Shown one piece after another: positions 2,067-63,191 of a stretch of DNA of 64,000 nt. Numbering within the stretch: position 1 is the first letter of the stretch; each line of letters begins with the position of its first letter. The DNA is taken from the IMG/VR virus record IMGVR_UViG_3300032770_000005, positions 88,858-152,857 of that record; one strand, given 5' to 3'. The position numbers and the translations under genes are program-made. The stretch comes from a virus. The notes below the pieces were generated by a model, which saw nothing but the letters and a program-made list of their open reading frames with translations, was not told the DNA's origin and searched no databases.

Positions 2067-2623
2067 CCGGGCGACGAGGCGACCCGTCGTACACGCCGCC
2101 GACCGACGAGGAGCGACGCCTCGGCTACTACCTCGACTGCGTCAGCTGCGGCCGCCCGTGGGCGCTGCGCAGCTGCGTGCCGCACTTGCATCGCTGCCGC
2201 TCCTGCGCTCGCTCGTGGTGGCGCGACTACCGCCAGGCGGCGCGCCAAGGGCTGCCGCGGCCGAGCCTGCTAGGGCAGATCGCGCCGCATCCCTTCGCCT
2301 CGAAGGCGCTGAACCGCACGGTCGATCTGAACGCTCCGGGGCTCCTCGACCTGGTCGAGCAGGACCCGAAGTTCGCGAAGGAGCTGGACGCGTACATCGC
2401 CAGCCTGCGGCACGCCGACAGCAGCAAGCCGCCGCTGCGCGGCGCGGCCCTGAGCCTATCGGGACGGCCGCGTCGCCGCGCCGTGCGCGTGCCGCTCGAT
2501 GAAGACCCTACGCCCGAGCCGCCCATCTCCCGAGCGGCAGCCAAGGAGGTCGAGCGCCTGGTCGACGAGGTGCTCGTCGGCGACGTGATCGATGCCGGAG
2601 CGGTGCCGCGTCGGCGCGCGTGA
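2063..2623 (+). CDS. Zn-ribbon hypothetical protein
   Basis: CVSC...CRSC; ATGA coupling to upstream gene. Confidence 0.55.
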   Translation: MTGRRGDPSYTPPTDEERRLGYYLDCVSCGRPWALRSCVPHLHRCRSCARSWWRDYRQAARQGLPRPSLLGQIAPHPFASKALNRTVDLNAPGLLDLVEQDPKFAKELDAYIASLRHADSSKPPLRGAALSLSGRPRRRAVRVPLDEDPTPEPPISRAAAKEVERLVDEVLVGDVIDAGAVPRRRA

Positions 2624-2848
2624 GAGGCCTGCGCGGGGGCATGGTGCTCGCGACGCGCTCGCGACGAACCACGAGAGCCGGCGACGCGCCCATCCCGAAG
2701 CCAGCGCGGGGGCTTCGTGCCTGCGACTCGTGACGGAAGTTTCTCGTGGCTGACCTGTTGCATTCTGTCGAAAGGCCAGCGCGGAGGCTCTCATGTCCGC
2801 GACATGCAGTTCCACGACTGAGCCAGCGCGAGGGCTTGTGCTCGCGAC
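2619..2848 (+). CRISPR. mini-array A: 4 degenerate copies of the 36-bp CRISPR-like repeat
   Basis: copies at ~2619-2654, 2692-2727, 2767-2803, ~2813-2848 matching GTCGCGAGGCCAGCGCGGGGGCCGTGTGCCTGCGAC; spacers ~37, 39, ~9 nt. Confidence 0.75.
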
Positions 2849-4276: not shown

Positions 4277-5597
4277 GGACGCGCAGCTGCAACTCGTGGG
4301 CGATGCCCTCCTCCGGTTCGCGGCGGAGTTCCCTGGTCGCGTCTTCACGAACGCGTACACATGGGTCTGGGGCGCCGGCAGATACGTCTCCATCCATGGC
4401 GCGCTCGTGGGCAGCGCACGCAAGGTCGCCGCCTACTTCGGTCACATGGCGACCATGAACGAGGAGCACGAGTTCGGCATGAGCGGCCAGGTGCTCGATC
4501 ACATCGCTCGCCGCGTGTTCGGCGCCGACGCCGACATCTTCCGGTACGAGCGCCGTGTGCACCTAGCAGAGTTCCTCCAGCGCCTGGCGAACCTGATGCC
4601 GGAGGAGGCGACGCTGACCTTCATCCCCGACGGCGGCTACCCGTGGCCCGTCGATCGGTACTGGAACGCACGGCTTGAGCGGTTCGTGCGGCCCAAGGAG
4701 CCCGCGGGGCTGATCCACGTGCCGTCGCGCGAAAACCCGACCAAGACCGAGCTGGGGCTCGATCCGTGCACGGTGTTCGAGGCAGATCGCGATACGCCGG
4801 TCTCTCCGTACGACCCGGTGATGGGCAGCCTTGGCGGCGATCCTCTCATGGCCGCGCACTCGATGGACCTCCACGAAGGGCCCACCATGGCCAACGCACC
4901 GAAGATTCGGCAATGCGGTGGTCTGCTGTTCCCGTCGCTCTCGGTCGGTCCGGTCCCGGCCTCGAACTTCGGCCACGCATGCCTCGTGGCTCGCCTCAGC
5001 CTGGTGCTCGACGGCCTCAAGCCCTACCGCAAGCGCGGGACTGAAGAGCAGGTCTGGATCTACCCGACCGACGTGTGGACTGGCACCGTGACGCAGTTCA
5101 TGACCTCGATGGCCAGCGACCTGTTCGACGAGCTGCACGGTCACGCCGACTACGTCTACGGGCATGGCCTGACGGTGCTGGGGATCCCGGCGGTCGAGTA
5201 CGGCGGTCCTTCCGGCGGTGCGGAGGCGTTCGACTCGACGAGCCAGCTCAAGCGGACCCTCAAGAAGCGCATGGTGCGATGGATGCGGGTCTGCAACGAG
5301 CGCGAGTTCGAGGAACTGGCGCACGAACTCGGCGGCACGGGGGCGTACTACGCCTACTGCGAGGCGAAGGGGCGAACGGTCGTCTCGCTGAGCGAGTTCC
5401 CGTACCTGATCGTACCGGACTGGATGCGCGACAAGGCGGAGCACTGGGCGCAAGCGGCGGGGTTCGAGGGGCAGATCGTAGCGCCGCAGTGGCCGTACAC
5501 GCTCGACAGGGGCGGCGGAAGCTGGGACATGTGGCAGTGGGCTCTGAAGGTGAGCGAGACCGTCGCCGGTCTACGCCCGGTCGTGGAGGTGCGCTGA
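4257..5597 (+). CDS. two-domain protein; C-terminal domain resembles a large-polyvalent-protein domain
   Basis: LMAAHS..GGLLFPSLSV..NFGHACLV..IYPTDVWT pattern recalled from MGE polyvalent proteins; apparent boundary at SRENP. Confidence 0.45.
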   Translation: MSKTETEDAQLQLVGDALLRFAAEFPGRVFTNAYTWVWGAGRYVSIHGALVGSARKVAAYFGHMATMNEEHEFGMSGQVLDHIARRVFGADADIFRYERRVHLAEFLQRLANLMPEEATLTFIPDGGYPWPVDRYWNARLERFVRPKEPAGLIHVPSRENPTKTELGLDPCTVFEADRDTPVSPYDPVMGSLGGDPLMAAHSMDLHEGPTMANAPKIRQCGGLLFPSLSVGPVPASNFGHACLVARLSLVLDGLKPYRKRGTEEQVWIYPTDVWTGTVTQFMTSMASDLFDELHGHADYVYGHGLTVLGIPAVEYGGPSGGAEAFDSTSQLKRTLKKRMVRWMRVCNEREFEELAHELGGTGAYYAYCEAKGRTVVSLSEFPYLIVPDWMRDKAEHWAQAAGFEGQIVAPQWPYTLDRGGGSWDMWQWALKVSETVAGLRPVVEVR

Positions 5598-7033
5598 TGT
5601 TGCTGCAAGACGCTACGTCGGAACGGGAGGTCGAGGAAGTGCTGGCCGGCGCGCGTGGCGACGAGGAAGCCGCCGAGCTGCGGACCGACATCGAGACCGA
5701 GCTGGACTACGCCATGCGGCGGTTCGACGAGCACTTCTACAAGTACGTCGAGCCATCTGAGCCGACGGAGCTGCGGGACTTCGTGCAAGACAACGATGGA
5801 TTCATCGACGAGCTAATCAGCGACAGCGCGCAGACCACGTACGACCTATCGATCGTCCCGCGTGAGGACGTGGTCACCGCGGTGCGCTGGGAGGTGACGT
5901 CGCGACGGTCCTCATACAAGCATAGGTTTGGGATCTTCGAGTTGGGCGAGCCGCGAGACGTCGACGCATCGGGCTTCAGCTACGACATGCCCACCGAAGC
6001 GAACGTCGTCTTTCCCGACAGGCTCCTGCCGACCAACTACGAGTTCGTGCCACGCGAGATGGCGACGGAGTTCTGGAAGGGCATTGCGCATGACCACGAC
6101 ATCGAGTGGTACGGCGACACGGACCGGTTGGGTGACAACCAGGGCTCGATGCCGGGCGAGCCGCTCCGTATCGGCGTCGCGGAAGATCGCTTCGAGGAGT
6201 GGTGCCGCGACCTGATCGCCGAGCACGCGAACAAGATCGCAGAGCAGCATCCGGACCAGCTCATCGAGATGTTCTGGACTCGGCTCCGTCAATCCGATGT
6301 CCGGATGGCAGCCGAGTTCAAGGCGATGCAGCCGCGGCGGGAGGACGTGCTCGACCTGGCCGTGCAGTGGATCAGCGGCAACCACGACGATGTCGCCGAG
6401 GAGATCGCGCAGTACCTCGACTCGGCCAAGGAGCGCGGGGAGGCAGAGAAAGCGGAGTACGAGCCCGTCGACTCGCTCCTGACCGGCGAGCCCATCGTGC
6501 TCAACGACGACGTGCTGCGGCAGCTGGGCGTCACGAGCGGCGTGTTCTGGGAGGAGCGCCCGTGGCACCTCGTGAGGCTCGAAGCGCGTGACCTAGGTCG
6601 CGAGGGCCGGCAGATGCGGCACTGCGTCGGCGACAAGGGCATGGGCTACATCCGTGCGCTCAACAACGGCGAGATCGAAGTCTGGTCTCTGCGCTCCCGC
6701 GACGACAAGCCGCGGTTCACGCTCCAGGTCGACGCGTCGTTCTTCGCGAAGGGCGCGACGCCAGAGACGCGCGGCAAGGCGATCCAACAGGTCAAGGGCA
6801 AGGCGAACCGGGTGCCGGGCTATGCCGACGCGTACGGCCGCTCGGGGAACGTGAAGTTCCCGGAGGAGATCGTCATCTGGAGCTGGATCTTCGAGCAGCT
6901 CATGGTCGATCCGCTCGTCGTCGAAGACTTCAAGGGCTACAAGGCGCTTCCCTCGCGTGCTACGCCGCTCGCGTCGAACATGACTGGCCAGCAGTGCGTG
7001 GGCTTCGATCTGCCGTACCGACCGCTGCGATGA
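5597..7033 (+). CDS. PcfJ-like domain protein
   Basis: LGREGRQMRHCVG..YI..VWSLR..PRFTLQV..IQQVKGKAN PcfJ signature. Confidence 0.7.
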   Translation: MLLQDATSEREVEEVLAGARGDEEAAELRTDIETELDYAMRRFDEHFYKYVEPSEPTELRDFVQDNDGFIDELISDSAQTTYDLSIVPREDVVTAVRWEVTSRRSSYKHRFGIFELGEPRDVDASGFSYDMPTEANVVFPDRLLPTNYEFVPREMATEFWKGIAHDHDIEWYGDTDRLGDNQGSMPGEPLRIGVAEDRFEEWCRDLIAEHANKIAEQHPDQLIEMFWTRLRQSDVRMAAEFKAMQPRREDVLDLAVQWISGNHDDVAEEIAQYLDSAKERGEAEKAEYEPVDSLLTGEPIVLNDDVLRQLGVTSGVFWEERPWHLVRLEARDLGREGRQMRHCVGDKGMGYIRALNNGEIEVWSLRSRDDKPRFTLQVDASFFAKGATPETRGKAIQQVKGKANRVPGYADAYGRSGNVKFPEEIVIWSWIFEQLMVDPLVVEDFKGYKALPSRATPLASNMTGQQCVGFDLPYRPLR

Positions 7034-7068: not shown

Positions 7069-7375
7069 CAGCATGCGCCAGCGCGAGGGCCTGGTGCTCG
7101 CGACCAGGCCTGAAGAGCCCTGCGGTCACGAAGCCTGCGCAGGGGTCTCATGCCTGCGACGAGGAGTGCCATGCCATCCATCATCTGCGGGACCTGCTTC
7201 TGGTTGCAGGGCCAGCGCGGGGGTCTCATACCTGCAACGAGAGCATCGAACGATGGAACGCTCGGAGGCGTGAACGTCCGAGGCCGGCGCGAGGGCCTGG
7301 TGCCTGCGACCTGTTCTTCCGCTGGTGGAGAACCGCATCGTCGCGAGCACCAAGCCCCCGCGCCGGCCTTTCGAC
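7069..7375. CRISPR. mini-array B: 4 repeat copies in + orientation and 1 in - orientation at the convergence of two operons
   Basis: + copies 7069-7104, 7125-7160, 7203-7238, 7275-7310 (spacers 20, 42, 36 nt); inverted copy 7340-7375. Confidence 0.75.
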
Positions 7376-11632: not shown

Positions 11633-11668
11633 GTCGCAGGCACCAAGCCCACGCGCTGGCCTTGGCGA
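11633..11668 (-). repeat. solo copy of the CRISPR-like repeat
   Basis: gtcgcaggcaccaagcccacgcgctggccttggcga, intergenic, same orientation as the main array. Confidence 0.65.
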
Positions 11669-13124: not shown

Positions 13125-13712
13125 TCACCACTTCGAGAACGACTCGAAGGGCTGATCGCGGTGCACGTACAGCGGATGCCGAGGGGCGCCACTGTGCACG
13201 CGCCCAAGGCAGAGCACGGGCACGCTGCCGGCTACCAAGCGACGGTGCACGTCGCGCTCGTGCTCGTGGCCGAAGCTCGGCCCGCTCGCGCCCCACGCGC
13301 AGACGATCGCGTGCACAGACGGGTCGTGCAGCACGAGGGTGAACTGCGCGTCGTTCTTGGGGCCGACGACGCGTGAGATCCAGTCGATTCGATCGAGCTG
13401 GCTCCGCTCGACGGTGTGGTGCGGCTCGGGCGGCGGCGAGCGCAGGGCGGTCGGCGATGGCGAGCGCAGGGCGTAGAGGTTCAGGACGATCAGCCCGCCG
13501 CAGCCCTCGCGCTTGGAGAAGCCGATGCAGCGACGGATCGTAGGATCGTCGGTCTCCGCGTCCGCCGTGCTCGGGTTCAGCATCACCCACACGAGCACCT
13601 TCGCGGCAGGCGCCCACATACGCCAGAGGCGATAGCGGTACTCGCCGTCGATGATGGCGCCGGAGAGCGGCGGCGGCACGGTGGGCGCTGGCTCGGTGAC
13701 ATCGAGGCCCAT
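13125..13712 (-). CDS. DUF1643 family protein
   Basis: YRYRLWRMW, VMLNPSTAD..DDPTIRRC, VLNLYALRS, CAWG, PRHPLY. Confidence 0.9.
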   Translation of the reverse strand: MGLDVTEPAPTVPPPLSGAIIDGEYRYRLWRMWAPAAKVLVWVMLNPSTADAETDDPTIRRCIGFSKREGCGGLIVLNLYALRSPSPTALRSPPPEPHHTVERSQLDRIDWISRVVGPKNDAQFTLVLHDPSVHAIVCAWGASGPSFGHEHERDVHRRLVAGSVPVLCLGRVHSGAPRHPLYVHRDQPFESFSKW

Positions 13713-14903: not shown

Positions 14904-15165
14904 TTGCGCGAGCCAGCGCGAGGGCTTGGTGCTCGCGACAACGATCAGGTCGCACAAAAGCCCTCGCCGGGGCTTCGTGCCGGCGACGTCGAGGAGGTTG
15001 GCGCGTTGATCGCGAAGGGCCGCTCAGTGCGAGGCCAGCGCGGGGGCCGTTGTGCCTGCGACGATTCCCTCGGCGCGCTCTCGGCGTCAAGCCAACGCAG
15101 GGGCCTGGTGCCTGCGACGCGCGGCGTCTCCGCGAGGGCCTGTGCGAGGGCTTTGTGCTCGCGAC
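14904..15165 (+). CRISPR. mini-array D: 5 degenerate repeat copies
   Basis: copies ~14904-14939, 14952-14987, 15026-15062, 15083-15118, 15130-15165; irregular spacers ~11-38 nt. Confidence 0.7.
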
Positions 15166-15224
15166 CGAGGATGCTCGCGATCGAAAACAAGCCTCTTAGC
15201 CGGCCAACGAAGGGAGCCTGAACC

Positions 15225-15509
15225 ATGCTGATCGTCCACTATGGAGCCCCCAGCCCGGACACCGAATACCCGCGCATCCCGCCCATTCTGACCGACCCGC
15301 GGCCAAACACCGTGACGCCGGGACCAGCGACGCCGGAGCCCGTGGCGCCGAAGCCGGACCAGATGCTCGCGGCGCTGACGAAGCGGCGCGTGCGGGTCGC
15401 GGTGAGGATCGACGAGGCCGGCCGCGTGCACGTGCGGGTCGACGGTCCATTCGGTCTGGCCGCCGACGTCTCGGGCGAGAAGTCGATCACGATCGAGACC
15501 GAGGTCTGA
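15225..15509 (+). CDS. hypothetical protein between repeat clusters
   Basis: AGGGAG RBS, 94 aa ORF. Confidence 0.6.
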   Translation: MLIVHYGAPSPDTEYPRIPPILTDPRPNTVTPGPATPEPVAPKPDQMLAALTKRRVRVAVRIDEAGRVHVRVDGPFGLAADVSGEKSITIETEV

Positions 15510-15695
15510 GCCGTGGCCCGCGCAGGGGCCTCGTGCCTGCGACCATACCGAGCACCGGCACTCGTGCAGCCGCAGGGTCGGTTGCGAAGCCTGCGCAGGG
15601 GCCAGGTGCCTGCGACAAGTTGTACGACACGTACTTCCCGCGCGAAGTCGGGACGTGTTGTTGCGAAGCCGGCGCGAGGGCTTCGTGCTCGCGAC
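15508..15695 (+). CRISPR. mini-array E: 3 repeat copies
   Basis: 15508-15543, 15581-15616, 15660-15695; spacers 37 and 43 nt. Confidence 0.75.
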
Positions 15696-16528: not shown

Positions 16529-16933
16529 ATGACCATCAACAGGCTCGCGGTCCGACCGGCGGCAGCGTCCCTCACGAAAGAGCTGCTGGAGCAGCTCGAC
16601 GACGGCCTGCTGATCGCGTGGCGCATCTCGAACAGCCGGCTCGACTGGTCGATCATGAACCGGCCTCCGTCGATCCAGGACCACGCGCTCGCGACGGCGC
16701 TCGTGTTCGCGATGCCGAACTACAAGCTCGTCATCGACAAGAAGATCATGCGGCCCGAGAAGATCCTGCGCAGCGATGGCCGCGAGGTCACGTACAACGA
16801 GTACATCGACGTCGACTTCACGGATGGACGGATCCGCTCGTCGCGCAAGCGGGACATGACTCAGAAAGTGCTGGCTGCCATCGTCCACCAGCTCATGCAG
16901 AGCACAGCGCCGATGCCTGGCGTTCGCGGCTGA
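16529..16933 (+). CDS. hypothetical protein
   Basis: AGGAG RBS; converges on the array. Confidence 0.65.
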   Translation: MTINRLAVRPAAASLTKELLEQLDDGLLIAWRISNSRLDWSIMNRPPSIQDHALATALVFAMPNYKLVIDKKIMRPEKILRSDGREVTYNEYIDVDFTDGRIRSSRKRDMTQKVLAAIVHQLMQSTAPMPGVRG

Positions 16934-16966
16934 TTCGGCCGAGCTGCGTGCCGGCATCGACGTGAA

Positions 16967-18352
16967 GTCGCGGGCATTCGGCCCCCACGCTGGCCTGACG
17001 GCGACGGCGATGACCCACTGCTGCGCCATGTCGCAGGCACGATGCCCCCACGCTGGCCCTGCAACGCGCACAACGCGCAGTACAAGCCGATGGCGCTCGG
17101 CGTGGCTCGGCGTGTCGCGAGCACCAAGCCCCCGCGCTGGCCTCGCCTGCATGACGATCTGCACCGAGTGCTTCTGCGTCCATCCGTCGCGGGCACTCGG
17201 CCCCCGCGCTGGCCTCGTAACAAGGGCTCTAGCTGACCGGTCAGCAGGACGACGCGCAGTCGCAGGCACGATGCCCCCGCGCTGGCTCTTCGAGACGCCG
17301 TCTCGGCCTTCCGGTCGCAGGCACCAGGCCCCTGCGCAGGCCTCGCAACAACTACACGCGAACCGAGCGCCTTCGCATATGCGTCGCGAGCACAAGCCCT
17401 CGCGCTGGCTCAGTCGTGGAACTGCATGTCGCGGACACCAGAGCCTCCGCGCAGGCTCGATCGTGGTCGCTCGGCTTGAGCGCGAGCCGGGCCTTCTCGC
17501 TCACTTCGCGAGCACCAAGCCCCCGCGCTGGCTTCGCGACTACGTGGATGCGGCCGCTTCCCCTTGGTCCAGCGCCAGGTGCAGGCACGAGGCCCCTGCG
17601 CAGGCCTCGCGACGTCCTCGTCATGAACACCAATCTCGCGGACACGCAGTCGCAGGCACACGGCCCCCGCGCTGGCCTCGCGACGCATATGATCGGCGCT
17701 GGTACGCGTGCGGCGACCTCCAGTCGCAGGCACTCGGCCCCCGCGCTGGCCTCGCGACGCTCCGGCGCGCCGCGTGAGCATCACGACGTCGCGCTTCATG
17801 TCGCGAGCACTCGGCCCCCGCGCTGGCCTCGCGACCGGCAGACCCGGGCGATGGTAGTGCTGCACGATGACGTCGCAGGCACACGGCCCCCGCGCTGGCC
17901 CCGCGACCAATGAACGGTGCCTTGTGGGCGGCCACGGGTCCCAGAGTCGCAGGCACACGGCCCCCGCGCTGGCCTCGCGACCCGCACAGCAGCGCGTTGA
18001 ACGCGCCGCCCGCGAGAAAGTCGCAGGCACACGGCCCCCGCGCTGGCCTCGCGACGGCACTGCTCCGGCGCATGGGCTTCTGCGAGGAGCGCGGTCGCAG
18101 GCACACGGCCCCCGCGCTGGCCTCGCGACCGCGTCGCTGGCCACCCGACACGCATGTATGTGCCTCCCGGTCGCAGGCACACGGCCCCCGCGCTGGCCTC
18201 GCGACGCACGTCGTGCACGGTCGGCGTTGTCGTAGTTCTCCTGTCGCAGGCACCAGGCCCCCGCGCCGGCCTCGCGACTAGAGGATCTGCGTGCGAGGAA
18301 CGTTGTCGAAGAAGGAGTCGCAGGCACACGGCCCCCGCGCTGGCCTCGCGAC
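16967..18352 (-). CRISPR. CRISPR-like array, 20 repeats / 19 spacers, no cas genes in window
   Basis: 36-bp repeat (+ strand GTCGCAGGCACACGGCCCCCGCGCTGGCCTCGCGAC) at 17649, 17723, 17800, 17872, 17946, 18020, 18094, 18170, 18243, 18317 with unique 36-41 nt spacers; more degenerate copies at 16967-17613, suggesting a leader on the right and - strand transcription. Confidence 0.9.
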
Positions 18353-18371
18353 GGACTGCTCGCATCGGCCG

Positions 18372-18770
18372 TCATTCCGCATCACTGGGCGCCGCTTCGC
18401 GAGCGGTCCCCGCTGAGCAAGCCGCACAGCCTTCCTTGCCTTCGCTCGCGCCCATGTCTCGTCGTCTTGCCCAGCGGAATCGTTGACCTCTCGCGGCTCG
18501 CGAGCGACTCCGCCCTCTGCGATAGCACCGGCGTCGCTCGCACATCGATCGAGAAGCTCCAGAAATGGCGTCGGTAGCGGCATCGGCTTCACTTCGAGGA
18601 TCTGCGGCCGCGAGTGCGGCGACTCCATCCACGCCTTCGAGATATCCTCGACGGTGTGCACCGTGTAGGGCACGCCCAGCTTGTCGAGCACCCCGAAGCG
18701 GGAAGTCCGCCGACACTCGCATCGGGACGAGCAGCCCGTCGAGCCTCACCTTGCTGTCCTTCTCGGTCAC
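18372..18770 (-). CDS. hypothetical protein immediately upstream of the array
   Basis: AGGAGG RBS; reading frame of the C-terminal part uncertain. Confidence 0.45.
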   Translation of the reverse strand: MTEKDSKVRLDGLLVPMRVSADFPLRGARQAGRALHGAHRRGYLEGVDGVAALAAADPRSEADAATDAISGASRSMCERRRCYRRGRSRSRAARGQRFRWARRRDMGASEGKEGCAACSAGTAREAAPSDAE

Positions 18771-18807
18771 TCAATCCTCCTGGCCACAGGATCGTGCCGC
18801 ACTGCGG

Positions 18808-19389
18808 CTAGCGCCTGTAGAGCCCGCGCAGGACCAGACGGTCTGCGTCGTCGATCCTCGGCGGGAAGCCCTGCGGCTCGGCCAGCGTGCAGCACGCGCC
18901 GCCGCACATGATCGAGCCGGACCAGCAGTCATGAGCCAAGCCGAGGCAGTGACCCAGCTCGTGCTGGAGCACCAGCGCCCGCATCGTCGTGTCGCCCTCG
19001 TTGCGCGTCTCGACCTCACACCGCCGACTGCCAGGCGTGTACGTCGCGTCGCCACCAGGATCGCGCCAGCCAGCCTCGACCGGTGCACCGACCACTACGC
19101 GCACCTGACACGTCGGCACGTTGCTCACGACCAGCACCGTGAGCCCGAGCCGCTCGTTGATGGTCCCGACCACGTCGACCACGGCATCGAACGCCGCCCG
19201 GTTGTCGTCAGGCGCGCCGCCGTACATCGACACGCACACGGCGATCGGCACGTCGGCCGCCGTGAAGCCAGGCCGCGCATCCATCAGCTCGGGCTCGCTG
19301 TGGTGCATGACGCCGTACACGACGAGCGACAGGACCAGGACCACAAGCCCTGCGATCGCAGCGATCATCGCGATGGAGCCAGGCTTCAC
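18808..19389 (-). CDS. matrixin-like (metzincin) metallopeptidase with N-terminal TM
   Basis: HELGHCLGLAH and Met-turn SIM. Confidence 0.8.
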   Translation of the reverse strand: MKPGSIAMIAAIAGLVVLVLSLVVYGVMHHSEPELMDARPGFTAADVPIAVCVSMYGGAPDDNRAAFDAVVDVVGTINERLGLTVLVVSNVPTCQVRVVVGAPVEAGWRDPGGDATYTPGSRRCEVETRNEGDTTMRALVLQHELGHCLGLAHDCWSGSIMCGGACCTLAEPQGFPPRIDDADRLVLRGLYRR

Positions 19390-19574
19390 GCCGCAGCCTT
19401 CCGCTGCCGATCGCCCACGCCACGGATGGTGCGCCGGTCGGTCTCGGACATGCCGGCCCAGAGCGCGTCCAGCTCCACCTGGTAGCGCTCGACCTCCTCC
19501 TCACCACGCAGCCGAGCACTGCGAAGCCGCTCTCGAACCGCTCGGTACCGCTCCACGAACATCGACTCGGACAT
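19386..19574 (-). CDS. small hypothetical protein
   Basis: GAGG RBS, coupled to next gene. Confidence 0.5.
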   Translation of the reverse strand: MSESMFVERYRAVRERLRSARLRGEEEVERYQVELDALWAGMSETDRRTIRGVGDRQRKAAA

Positions 19575-19832: not shown

Positions 19833-19851
19833 GTGTCCGACACCATGTCAA
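19833..19851 (-). promoter_or_regulatory. putative -35 box (TTGACA) with adjacent palindromic operator GTGTCGGACAC
   Basis: matches 14866-14885. Confidence 0.5.
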
Positions 19852-20246
19852 TGAATCAGCTCGTCGACCGCATCACCGTCGAGCCACAGACGGCGCGGCT
19901 CCAGATACACGTAGGTGGGGATCGGCTTCCTGCGAGCCAGCGAGATCGAATGCATCGTGCCGGCAGACACGCCATCCCAGAGCGCCACCAACTCGTCGGA
20001 TTCGTTCACGATGGCCTGGTTGCGGATGAATCCTGCCGAGCGGCCATGGAGGTGCCACTCGGCAGGAAAGACGATGGGCGCTGTGGAGCAGAGCCTGCGT
20101 GCGGCGCGCTCGGCCAGCGTGTCGGCGCCTTGCGCTCCGCCGCTGACGATGACGACCGACGGGTCGCGCTCCACCAGGCGCTTGACCACGCGCTCGACGA
20201 GCTGCCGATCGAAGAACGTCCTCGACCCGACGATCGCGACCTTCAC
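19848..20246 (-). CDS. SLOG superfamily (YspA/DUF2493-like) protein
   Basis: MKVAIVGSR, IVSGGAQGADTLAE, AGFIRNQAIV, WDGVSAGT. Confidence 0.85.
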   Translation of the reverse strand: MKVAIVGSRTFFDRQLVERVVKRLVERDPSVVIVSGGAQGADTLAERAARRLCSTAPIVFPAEWHLHGRSAGFIRNQAIVNESDELVALWDGVSAGTMHSISLARRKPIPTYVYLEPRRLWLDGDAVDELIH

Positions 20247-36238: not shown

Positions 36239-37441
36239 CTACACGTCGAGCCCATGCCGCCGCAGCAGCGATCGGAGGTTGCGGGTTGCGCGGACGTCCG
36301 ATGGCGTCGAGCCCGTCACGATGGGCGGCACGCGCACGTCGGGCGACATGAACCGCACGTGGTTGCCCGGCGTCTTCTCGACGCGCCACCCCTGCGCCTC
36401 AGCCGCCGCAATCAGCGTCCGCAGCTCGGGACTCTGCGTGAGGCGACGACTGCCCGAGGTGTTGGGCCGTGGTCGGGCCCATCGCGGACGCGGCGATGCC
36501 CAGTTGTCGTCGAGCGCCACGAGCCTCTTGTCGAGGCTCATGATGTGCTCGCGCACGATGTGCTGCCGCGACGCGATCGGACCGTGCAGGATGTACTCCA
36601 GCGCCTGCCGTTCCCGACCGTAGGGCATGTACGCCGTCGGGTCTTGCAGACGAATCGCGAGATAGGCAGGCCGTCCCATGTTGTCCGGGTGCCAGGCCAC
36701 CACCACACCGCGAGCTTCCGGCGGCACAGCAGCGGTCGCCGCGGCACCGTGGCTTCCCAGCGGCACGGACACGTTCGCCCAAGCGATCCACTTCACGTGC
36801 GTGCCGGGCGCGAACGTCCTCGTGGCCCACGTCTCGTAGCTCGCGCCCGCCTGGTGCCACGACTGCGGCACGGGAGCCGGTGGAATCGGGTTCGGTGTGT
36901 ACCGTCCCTTCCACTGACGCCCACGGTACACAGGCTGCTGCGATGCCCAGTTGTCTTGGAGCGGGATGAGCCACTGAAGCATCGATGGCGCGATCGGCCG
37001 CTGAACCGTATTGGTTCCGTAGCTGTCGAGGATCTTCCAGAGGTCATCGATCTCAGCTATCTGCCAACGCGCACTGACTCCAGCTGGACGCGCGGCGTAG
37101 TACGAGTACCCACGTGCATCCTGCACCGTCACCACGATCTGAATCGGATGCCGAAGACGATCGTCGTGGATGACCCCGACCACCTCGCCGCGTGTTCCGT
37201 CCGGAACCGTGACCTCGCGGCGCGCCAGGCTCTCATTGGTCTCGTATGGGTCCAGTGGAGCAGCCCACCACGCCATGCTCTCCTGCTCGAACTTCACCGG
37301 CGTGCCTGGCGCGTAGGTCCTCCGCGCCCAGCTCTCTAGGAGCTGGCTGGTCGGATCTTGCGGCGGCGGCGGGATCACGTTCGCATGAACGCGACGCGAA
37401 GTGCGCGCTCGGCCCCGCTTCGGTCGGCTCGTGCGAGCCAT
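36239..37441 (-). CDS. polyprotein-like: Arg leader, two paralogous domains, C-terminal HicA-like domain
   Basis: W..RT[YF]APGT.VK repeated; ELRTLIAAAEAQGWRVEKTPGNHVRF..STPSD..NLRSLLRRHG. Confidence 0.65.
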   Translation of the reverse strand: MARTSRPKRGRARTSRRVHANVIPPPPQDPTSQLLESWARRTYAPGTPVKFEQESMAWWAAPLDPYETNESLARREVTVPDGTRGEVVGVIHDDRLRHPIQIVVTVQDARGYSYYAARPAGVSARWQIAEIDDLWKILDSYGTNTVQRPIAPSMLQWLIPLQDNWASQQPVYRGRQWKGRYTPNPIPPAPVPQSWHQAGASYETWATRTFAPGTHVKWIAWANVSVPLGSHGAAATAAVPPEARGVVVAWHPDNMGRPAYLAIRLQDPTAYMPYGRERQALEYILHGPIASRQHIVREHIMSLDKRLVALDDNWASPRPRWARPRPNTSGSRRLTQSPELRTLIAAAEAQGWRVEKTPGNHVRFMSPDVRVPPIVTGSTPSDVRATRNLRSLLRRHGLDV

Positions 37442-61890: not shown

Positions 61891-61994
61891 AACAGCCGGC
61901 GCGCATGGCGCCGTCTGCCGCCGATCTCCCCTCGGCGGCAGACGGGGCCATGAGCCTCCGCTGCACAGTGCAGCGGTACACCTGGAGCAAGAGC

Positions 61995-63191
61995 ATGCAG
62001 CACACCGAACAAACCAACCACGCACGGCCGGCTCCGGAGCCTCCGCTCCGGACGCTGCCGGACCAGACCGCCGAGTGGCGTCCCTGCGGCGCCAATCCGC
62101 TGAGCTGGGACGAGGCGCGGCAGGCCATCGCGGAGGCCGACGCGAAGGATGGCGCCCGCACCGACATCGGCGTCGGCGATCTCTCGTCGTGGGTCCTCGG
62201 GCCCGGTCCGGGCGGCGTCGCCAGTCTCGTCGCGGTGCCGGTGCCCGGCCGGCCGCGGAGCGCGCCCGTGCCGATGCGCCGAGCCGCGTTCGGGCAGTTG
62301 GCCGAGGCGATCGGCGCGCCGTCCGCGTACCTGCTCAAGCTGCCGGCCCGGACGGCGGTGGCGTGCATCGCGCACGGCATGCAGCAGATCCCCCAGCGCC
62401 AGGCGGCGCGCTTGCTGCGCATGGCTCGCGGCGAGGTCAGGGCGGTCGCGTCCGACAGCTACGCGCCGCTCGACAACGAGCTGGTCATGGACACCCTGGA
62501 GTCGACGCTCCGCGCGCAGGGCATCCTGCGCGACGTGCGCGTGACGGATCTGTCGCTCGGCCCGACGACCGGCATGCGGCTGACGCTGCCCAGCCGCGAC
62601 AAGGCCGTGCGCGTCGGCGACGTCGTGGCGCTCGGGCTCGACGTGCTCAACGGGGAGATCCTCAACCGGTCGCTGAGCATCACGCCGGCCACCTACCGGC
62701 TCGTCTGCCTCAACGGCATGCGGTCGGCGGACGTCCAGGGGATCCGTCGCTTCCGCCACGTCGGCGACCCGCGGCGCCTGGCCGAGGCGTTCGCCGACGC
62801 GGTGCCCGTCGCCCTCGCGGAGGCGGAAGGGCTGCGCACCCGGATGGCGCGAGCGGTGGACGTGCTGGTCGACGACATCCTCGCCGACATCGACGGGCTC
62901 GATGCGTTCGGGCTCACGCAGACGGACGCGGACGCGGCGGCGCGAGATCTGTTCAGCGAGCGCGGCGTAGCGCTGCCCGAGGATCGTTCCGAGTGGGGCG
63001 CGCTGCCCGAGGTGCACGAGGCCCGCGTGAGCGTGTGGGACGTGGCGAACGCGATCACCCACTCGGCGCAGCGGCACACGCGCGAGGTCATCGACGTCAC
63101 GACGGGCGAGCGCTCGCAGCTGCCCGGCACCGACCGCCGGCTCGCGCTGGAGAGCGCGGCGGGCGCCTACCTGATGAGGCGCACGCGCTGA
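61995..63191 (+). CDS. DUF932/DUF945-like protein
   Basis: RAVASDSYAPLDN..NGEI..YRLVCLNGM..RHVG..WDVANAITH. Confidence 0.75.
   Translation: MQHTEQTNHARPAPEPPLRTLPDQTAEWRPCGANPLSWDEARQAIAEADAKDGARTDIGVGDLSSWVLGPGPGGVASLVAVPVPGRPRSAPVPMRRAAFGQLAEAIGAPSAYLLKLPARTAVACIAHGMQQIPQRQAARLLRMARGEVRAVASDSYAPLDNELVMDTLESTLRAQGILRDVRVTDLSLGPTTGMRLTLPSRDKAVRVGDVVALGLDVLNGEILNRSLSITPATYRLVCLNGMRSADVQGIRRFRHVGDPRRLAEAFADAVPVALAEAEGLRTRMARAVDVLVDDILADIDGLDAFGLTQTDADAAARDLFSERGVALPEDRSEWGALPEVHEARVSVWDVANAITHSAQRHTREVIDVTTGERSQLPGTDRRLALESAAGAYLMRRTR

Follow-up and report, generated by a model that had tools for sequence, protein, structure and literature searches.

A probable type V-M CRISPR array with a duplicated leader in a virus that encodes two Cas12m effectors

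Known Cas12m systems and the studied array

Type V-M CRISPR systems, whose effector is Cas12m, are enriched on plasmids and are found in some prophages. Their transcripts are processed with Cas12m into crRNAs of 50 to 60 nt, and a T- or C-rich PAM flanks their protospacers. Their lack of adaptation genes is typical of the former V-U subtypes, and D-E-D, H-D-D, and N-D-D variants of Cas12m have been shown to bind without cutting (PMC11013384). The crRNA of Cas12m2 consists of a 36-nt scaffold 5' of the guide, with a disordered 5' end and a 6-bp helix that uses positions -8 to -3 and is followed by A(-2) and C(-1) (PMC10442227). Viruses can carry such systems as well: the myxophage MV-1 encodes Cas12m in a system of one effector and one array with eight spacers, for which its authors, as we did here, found no protospacers (bioRxiv 10.64898/2026.09.14.751636). 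A different kind of virus-borne array, the mini-arrays and solitary repeat units, relies on host Cas proteins and copies the host repeat, and a part in virus-virus competition has been proposed for it (PMC11656645).

In this study, we analyzed a CRISPR array located in the right-hand 64 kb, hereafter the window, of a 152,857-bp IMG/VR virus record that CheckV rates as complete. Virus-borne Cas12m has already been published, and the array is an unexceptional case of a kind that was described recently. New here are a second regular array at a distance from the effector gene, its copy of a leader that overlaps the effector's tail, and a virus with two effectors. At a probability of roughly 0.75, we favor the interpretation that this is a functional type V-M array of the virus's own Cas12m system, with Cas12m-B as its effector and mobile elements as its targets. 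The computed basis of this interpretation comprises the anatomy of the array, its strand, the structure of its handle, the identity of the effector, the duplication of the leader, and the lack of both adaptation genes and self-targets.

Array anatomy, handle structure, and effector

Two repeat finders, a profile scan of the whole record, and an alignment delimit a 36-nt repeat in 20 copies between window positions 16967 and 18352 (Table 1). The profile was built from the good copies and then scanned over the whole 153-kb record. The original prediction of ten near-identical repeats on the right and ten degenerate ones on the left was borne out by both the profile scan and the alignment. Six of the copies R1 to R10 are identical. 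Spacers S1 to S9 are 36 to 41 nt long and S10, after R10, is 35 nt; those of R11 to R20 are irregular (11, 19, 27, 33, 36, 37, 37, 40, and 48 nt). Within the degenerate half, the 28-nt handle part of the repeat is 83% conserved, compared with 59% for the 5' 8 nt outside the handle. No Rfam CRISPR-DR model reached its gathering score within the window. The convergent gene on the left stops 33 bp from the last repeat, so that the array takes up the space between two convergent genes. The array is also not the lone carrier of its handle family, of which about 85 copies are spread over 13 intergenic clusters genome-wide.

Table 1. Coordinates of the array and of associated features (window positions unless marked as genome, which denotes the whole record)
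Feature	Position	Strand	Basis or remark
Second copy of the R13-spacer-R14 unit	2767-2848	+	inside handle cluster 2619-2848
Other handle clusters in the window	7069-7375; 11633-11668; 2619-2848		profile scan
Two degenerate handle clusters (7 copies), just left of the array	14904-15695	+	profile scan
Convergent gene before the last repeat	16529-16933	+	gene call, codon signal
Leader-distal half, R11-R20, degenerate	16967-17613	-	20-32/36 against consensus; stem kept by compensatory changes
R13 + 11-nt spacer + R14 unit	17383-17464	-	near-exact duplicate at 2767-2848
Leader-proximal half, R1-R10 with S1-S9	17649-18352	-	33-36/36 against consensus; start-to-start 72-77
Leader	18354-18541	-	83% identity over 188-190 bp to genome 59044-59232
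Open frame of the original prediction, not a gene	18372-18770	-	codon score -0.29 per codon; GC3 0.57
Further non-coding DNA, upstream gene to leader	18542-18807	-	no frame with coding signal; no gene called
Zinc-metallopeptidase-like gene, last real gene of the upstream minus-strand block	18808-19389	-	Reprolysin_5, 1.5e-6; codon signal
cas12m-A, 586 aa	genome 8790-10550		Cas12u1 profile, Cas12m structure relatives
cas12m-B, 621 aa	genome 57349-59214		Cas12u1 profile, Cas12m structure relatives

Read on the minus strand, repeat positions 14 to 19 pair with positions 29 to 34 in a stem in which 98.9% of the cells are paired over the 20 copies; slid controls reached at most 64%. Three of the six stem pairs are altered on both sides, a result matched by 1 of 500 shuffles. 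Eleven cells form G-U pairs on the minus strand; read from the plus strand, they would turn into A-C mismatches. Six other loci (L016, L021, L026, L028, L029; G001/L049), five from metagenomes or MAGs and one from a second complete virus, have cas12m and, 29 to 190 bp downstream of it, an array that runs in the same sense. Compensatory changes, G-U pairs, and this gene-to-array order all indicate that the predicted crRNA sense is the minus strand of the window. This sense makes the conserved right end the upstream, leader end, and the polarised virus-borne CRISPR array originally described, with its newest end at 18352, is what we found. An end-to-end fold of the repeat from energy minimisation was rejected, its pairing being no better than that of shuffles by covariation. 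The repeat has the layout of the Cas12m2 crRNA, with a stem that uses -8 to -3 and then A-C beside the guide; the other strand of the stem is shifted by one nucleotide compared with Cas12m2.

Among the 20 largest open reading frames near the array and in the window, searches with Pfam, PHROGs, and PADLOC found no cas genes. Most other large frames of the window match no family, and the domains that were recognized, DUF1643 (13125-13712, minus strand), YspA/SLOG (19848-20246, minus), DUF932 (61968-63191, plus), and a PcfJ-like domain (5597-7033, plus), are common on mobile elements. A 379-aa protein at 36239-37378 (minus) ends in about 60 residues that resemble a HicA toxin (PADLOC 4e-8; PHROG 2089 5e-15).

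When genes were called over the whole record with a codon model and scanned with PADLOC and Pfam, two cas12m genes emerged, both outside the window, with Cas12f-like products that match the PADLOC Cas12u1 profile at full length (1e-100 and 1e-98). The closest solved structures are the Cas12m chains 23vw (1.5e-67) and 8hio/8hhl (3e-27). Cas12m-A and Cas12m-B are 46% identical, and the D-E-D RuvC triad is kept in both by alignment; aligned to the solved structures, Cas12m-B retains D313, E469, and D555 together with the zinc-ribbon cysteines. Given the retained triad, DNA cleavage by these proteins is possible. As in other V-M systems, a Cas12m effector is present on the same replicon; the studied array does not adjoin cas12m as V-M arrays do, lying 46.6 kb from cas12m-B. 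A sister array of 14 repeats (array B) starts 19 bp after the cas12m-B stop and has the same handle as the studied array; the repeat that adjoins cas12m-A downstream is different. By its handle sequence, the studied array thus belongs to Cas12m-B, and the pattern of host-dependent mini-arrays, a copied host repeat and no effector of their own, is not the one seen here. Three copies of cas12m-A's own repeat lie at genome 10553-11246, the first two of them 574 bp apart with a 179-aa open reading frame between.

Leader, adaptation genes, and related arrays

The original prediction saw no evident leader and proposed that spacers had been acquired without a conventional one. Its description of the sequence was accurate, in that the 400 bp upstream are not AT-rich (58 to 72% GC in 50-nt steps) and a gap of 19 bp separates the array end from the stop codon of the open reading frame at 18372-18770. 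Its two statements about the leader did not survive: the 188 bp beside the first repeat are an 83% copy of the stretch that precedes the sister array, and a duplicated leader is present directly upstream of R1. The matching genome segment spans the 3' tail of cas12m-B and the junction with the sister array. The genome has no third copy, and only the two arrays with homogeneous repeats carry the leader. The part of cas12m-B that matches the leader encodes residues 566 to 621, beyond the region conserved among Cas12m proteins, and this tail has a GC3 of 0.70 and a codon score of about 0, compared with 0.87 and 0.16 per codon in the core.

What had hidden the leader was the open frame called over it. 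Real genes of the virus have a GC3 of 0.87 to 0.90, compared with 0.57 in this frame, which matched no protein family and whose stop codon and last 11 codons are a vestige of the cas12m-B tail. Its poor codon score and GC3, its only 11 shared residues, and the lack of a family mark it as an accidental open frame over the leader, and the apparent absence of a leader is an artefact of this spurious frame. We also considered the frame as a decayed cas12m and rejected this, as it shares with cas12m-B just the last 11 residues and 188 nt. The non-coding DNA ahead of the array amounts to 455 bp including the leader, and more distant relatives have only short motifs in common in the leader region. 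No sigma-70-like promoter was found in 16700-19500, leader included, where a sigma-70 type may not be the host's, and a terminator scan of the same interval returned one candidate, at chance level. Transcription could start within the 455-bp region or continue into the array from the minus-strand genes, the last of which stops at 18808.

A search of the whole virus record for Cas1, Cas2, and Cas4 detected its positive controls but none of these three proteins, and the virus shares with V-M systems the missing adaptation module. Cas1 was likewise not found in the second complete virus (G001) or in the bacterial MAG G002. Arrays of the Cas12m family are polarised despite the missing Cas1 in the studied virus, in G001, and in the MAG, and such arrays in replicons that lack Cas1-Cas2 sharpen the question of how V-M systems gain spacers. 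Three contigs of sample Ga0187892 (L019, L026, and L037) have a common distal spacer and terminal degenerate repeat with different leader-side spacers, which fits turnover at the leader end or, alternatively, an assembly artefact or bubble; two other samples have the same first three spacers. L019 contains a duplicated spacer whose copies are one base apart.

Several of the related loci deserve description in their own right. G001 (IMGVR_UViG_3300035208_005676; 103.5 kb) has a cas12m of 36% identity, and at L049:966-3252 this gene is followed after 31 nt by an array with homogeneous repeats on the gene side and degenerate, more tightly spaced ones at the distal end; copies of the B-type handle also occur scattered over the G001 genome. 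Contig C37 of G002 (L016; CAZMGG010000037.1) carries a cas12m 44% identical to Cas12m-B and a six-repeat array. G002 is a 6-Mb MAG with a Brocadiaceae label and about 71% GC on every sampled contig, unlike known anammox genomes.

Two observations suggest that repeat-spacer units may have been exchanged between sites. The unit of R13, its 11-nt spacer, and R14 recurs almost exactly elsewhere in the window (Table 1), and R2 departs from the consensus at three positions, all three of which recur in one repeat of the sister array. The duplicated leader, the lack of any spacer common to the two arrays, the duplicated R13-R14 unit, and the R2 variant amid identical repeats raise the further idea that the leader-array module is a self-contained unit copied by the virus, with repeat-spacer units recombining between sites. 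We consider this idea tentative and, on balance, unlikely. If true, guides would be renewed and spread even in a virus that lacks Cas1-Cas2, and this virus would run a set of Cas12m silencing RNAs from across its genome to counter rival viruses.

Spacers, proposed mechanism, and comparison with known systems

The original prediction drew attention to spacers that translate cleanly, and spacers 1, 7, and 9 do translate into the three peptides it quoted. This carries no weight, because at 68% GC most frames are open even after shuffling (4.45 of 6 open frames in shuffled spacers versus 4.9 of 6 in real ones). A different measure is informative. The codon-phase GC periodicity of the spacers is 0.286, versus 0.172 when shuffled (p = 2e-4), with values of 0.366 in the sister array and 0.338 in the virus's own coding DNA. 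This excess over shuffled spacers indicates that many spacers were probably copied from high-GC coding sequence.

The virus itself does not appear to be a target. The absence of self-matches noted originally extends from the window to the whole 153-kb genome, where the longest exact match of a proper spacer is 16 nt; seed-anchored matches reach at most 12 nt, equal to shuffled spacers, and the spacer peptides compared with the six-frame translation of the virus also behave as shuffled spacers do. Searches of the virus itself, GenBank phages, IMG/VR, JGI metagenomes, and 401 bacterial genomes gave no protospacer and hence no PAM: blastn of the array against GenBank phages returned only E values of at least 1, wobble-tolerant patterns had zero matches in IMG/VR (spacers 1, 4, 8, and 10) and in JGI metagenomes (spacer 1), and the other handle-bearing genomes, G001 and G002, gave only repeat-overlapping or short GC-rich matches. 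The 401 genomes represent the phylum of G002, the only cellular genome tied to the handle family, and their best spacer match, 30 of 38, was rejected, as about ten such matches are expected by chance at 71% GC. Neither the exact 28-nt handle nor a close relative of a 447-aa neighbour protein was found in IMG/VR, which left no syntenic array in which growth at the leader end could be compared.

One spacer elsewhere in the family is more informative. Between spacer 0 of the L035 array (contig Ga0172381_10072150) and genome 12317-12351 of the studied virus, 29 of 35 positions agree, including a perfect core of 16 nt, and the match keeps the reading frame of a conserved peptide; the best of its shuffles scored 25, and 0 of 300 reached 29. 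The matched gene (genome 11998-13092) lies outside the window and belongs to no Pfam family. The L035 array thus appears to hold a spacer from a homologue of a gene of the studied virus, which hints at virus-versus-virus targeting in which related viruses may aim at each other's homologues.

The original proposal of guides against competing viruses or host genes is plausible, and its second half is the strongest alternative to our interpretation. In that case, the guides would send Cas12m-B to silence host genes, for example in defence or metabolism, during infection rather than against rival mobile elements. Silencing that involves no cutting would avoid killing the cell prematurely (PMC10442227, PMC11013384), the spacers resemble high-GC coding DNA, and no match was found in the searched virus collections, all of which would suit such regulators. 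The 401 genomes and MAG G002, on the other side, contain no credible match, although this is a weak test, and the sole informative spacer in the family, that of L035, targets a viral gene homologue. We regard host-directed regulation as improbable.

We favor instead a guide array directed at mobile elements, and for its expression, processing, binding without cleavage, and targets we infer the following course. The array would be transcribed right to left on the minus strand, from the 455-bp region or by read-through. Each repeat would fold into the 6-bp stem of positions 14-19 and 29-34, with the terminal A-C directly 5' of the guide, and Cas12m-B would bind this handle and trim the variable 5' part of the repeat. 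The first 17 to 20 nt or so of each spacer would then guide Cas12m-B to PAM-flanked double-stranded DNA, where, by analogy with characterised Cas12m, it would stay bound and block transcription or replication with no cutting. The targets would most likely be other mobile elements, above all related viruses of the same high-GC host. The studied array and its leader would have arisen by duplication of the leader-array module behind cas12m-B.

Such a duplicate could also be a relic, that is, a decaying copy of array B that is no longer expressed or used and owes its polarity to uneven decay. No cas gene lies near the array, ten of its 20 repeats are degenerate, some spacers are as short as 11 nt and too short to guide, and no targets were found. 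Decay sits poorly, however, with the identity of 6 of the 10 leader-side repeats next to a leader that has diverged by 17% from its sister, and with degenerate repeats that keep their stem by compensatory changes and their handle better than the part that would be trimmed. The two arrays also have no spacer in common, so their content has turned over since the duplication. We judge this explanation to be very improbable. Least credible of all, and close to negligible, is a role other than guiding, in which the repeats would mainly act as places where Cas12m processes RNA or would lure away a host Cas12m, with the spacers as incidental filler; it could account for the many dispersed handle copies that are single or have very short spacers and for the gene between two cas12m-A repeats, but the leader-side spacers are as regular (35 to 41 nt) as true guides and the layout equals that of the cas12m-adjacent arrays at the six other loci.

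No CRISPR protein smaller than Cas12m is known to silence DNA through binding alone, and Cas12m is under development for base and epigenome editing. The virus may offer a natural pair of orthogonal handle-effector sets, and its two Cas12m versions together with a remote full array under the same leader speak for viral use beyond a token level. Several arrays with homologous leaders are ordinary in a single bacterial genome, for example in type I-E systems. The studied virus resembles these multi-array genomes in that the cas-distal array has the leader of the cas-proximal one with the same polarity, and differs from them in two respects: its leader and the non-conserved 3' end of the effector gene overlap, and Cas1-Cas2 is missing.

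Collectively, the closest counterparts are the Cas12m systems themselves. With MmCas12m2, GoCas12m, and MsCas12m (PMC10442227, PMC11013384) the system has in common an effector of about 600 aa, no expected tracrRNA, and no adaptation genes, and with bacterial and plasmid V-M systems a 36-nt repeat, a 3' handle ending in A-C, and an array, here the sister array, directly downstream of cas12m. Unlike those systems, it is virus-encoded and has two diverged effectors with a separate handle for each, many degenerate handle clusters, and an array that lies 46.6 kb from its effector and carries a leader copy. Virus mini-arrays (PMC11656645) resemble it as arrays in virus genomes that have no adaptation genes; unlike them, the studied virus has its own effector and a repeat that matches that effector's sister array. 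Like MV-1, it encodes a Cas12m of about 610 aa with D-E-D and an adjacent array, again the sister array, and has no cas1, cas2, or cas4; beyond what is described for MV-1, it has another effector, another regular array at a distance from cas12m, a duplicated leader, and mini-arrays at scattered sites.
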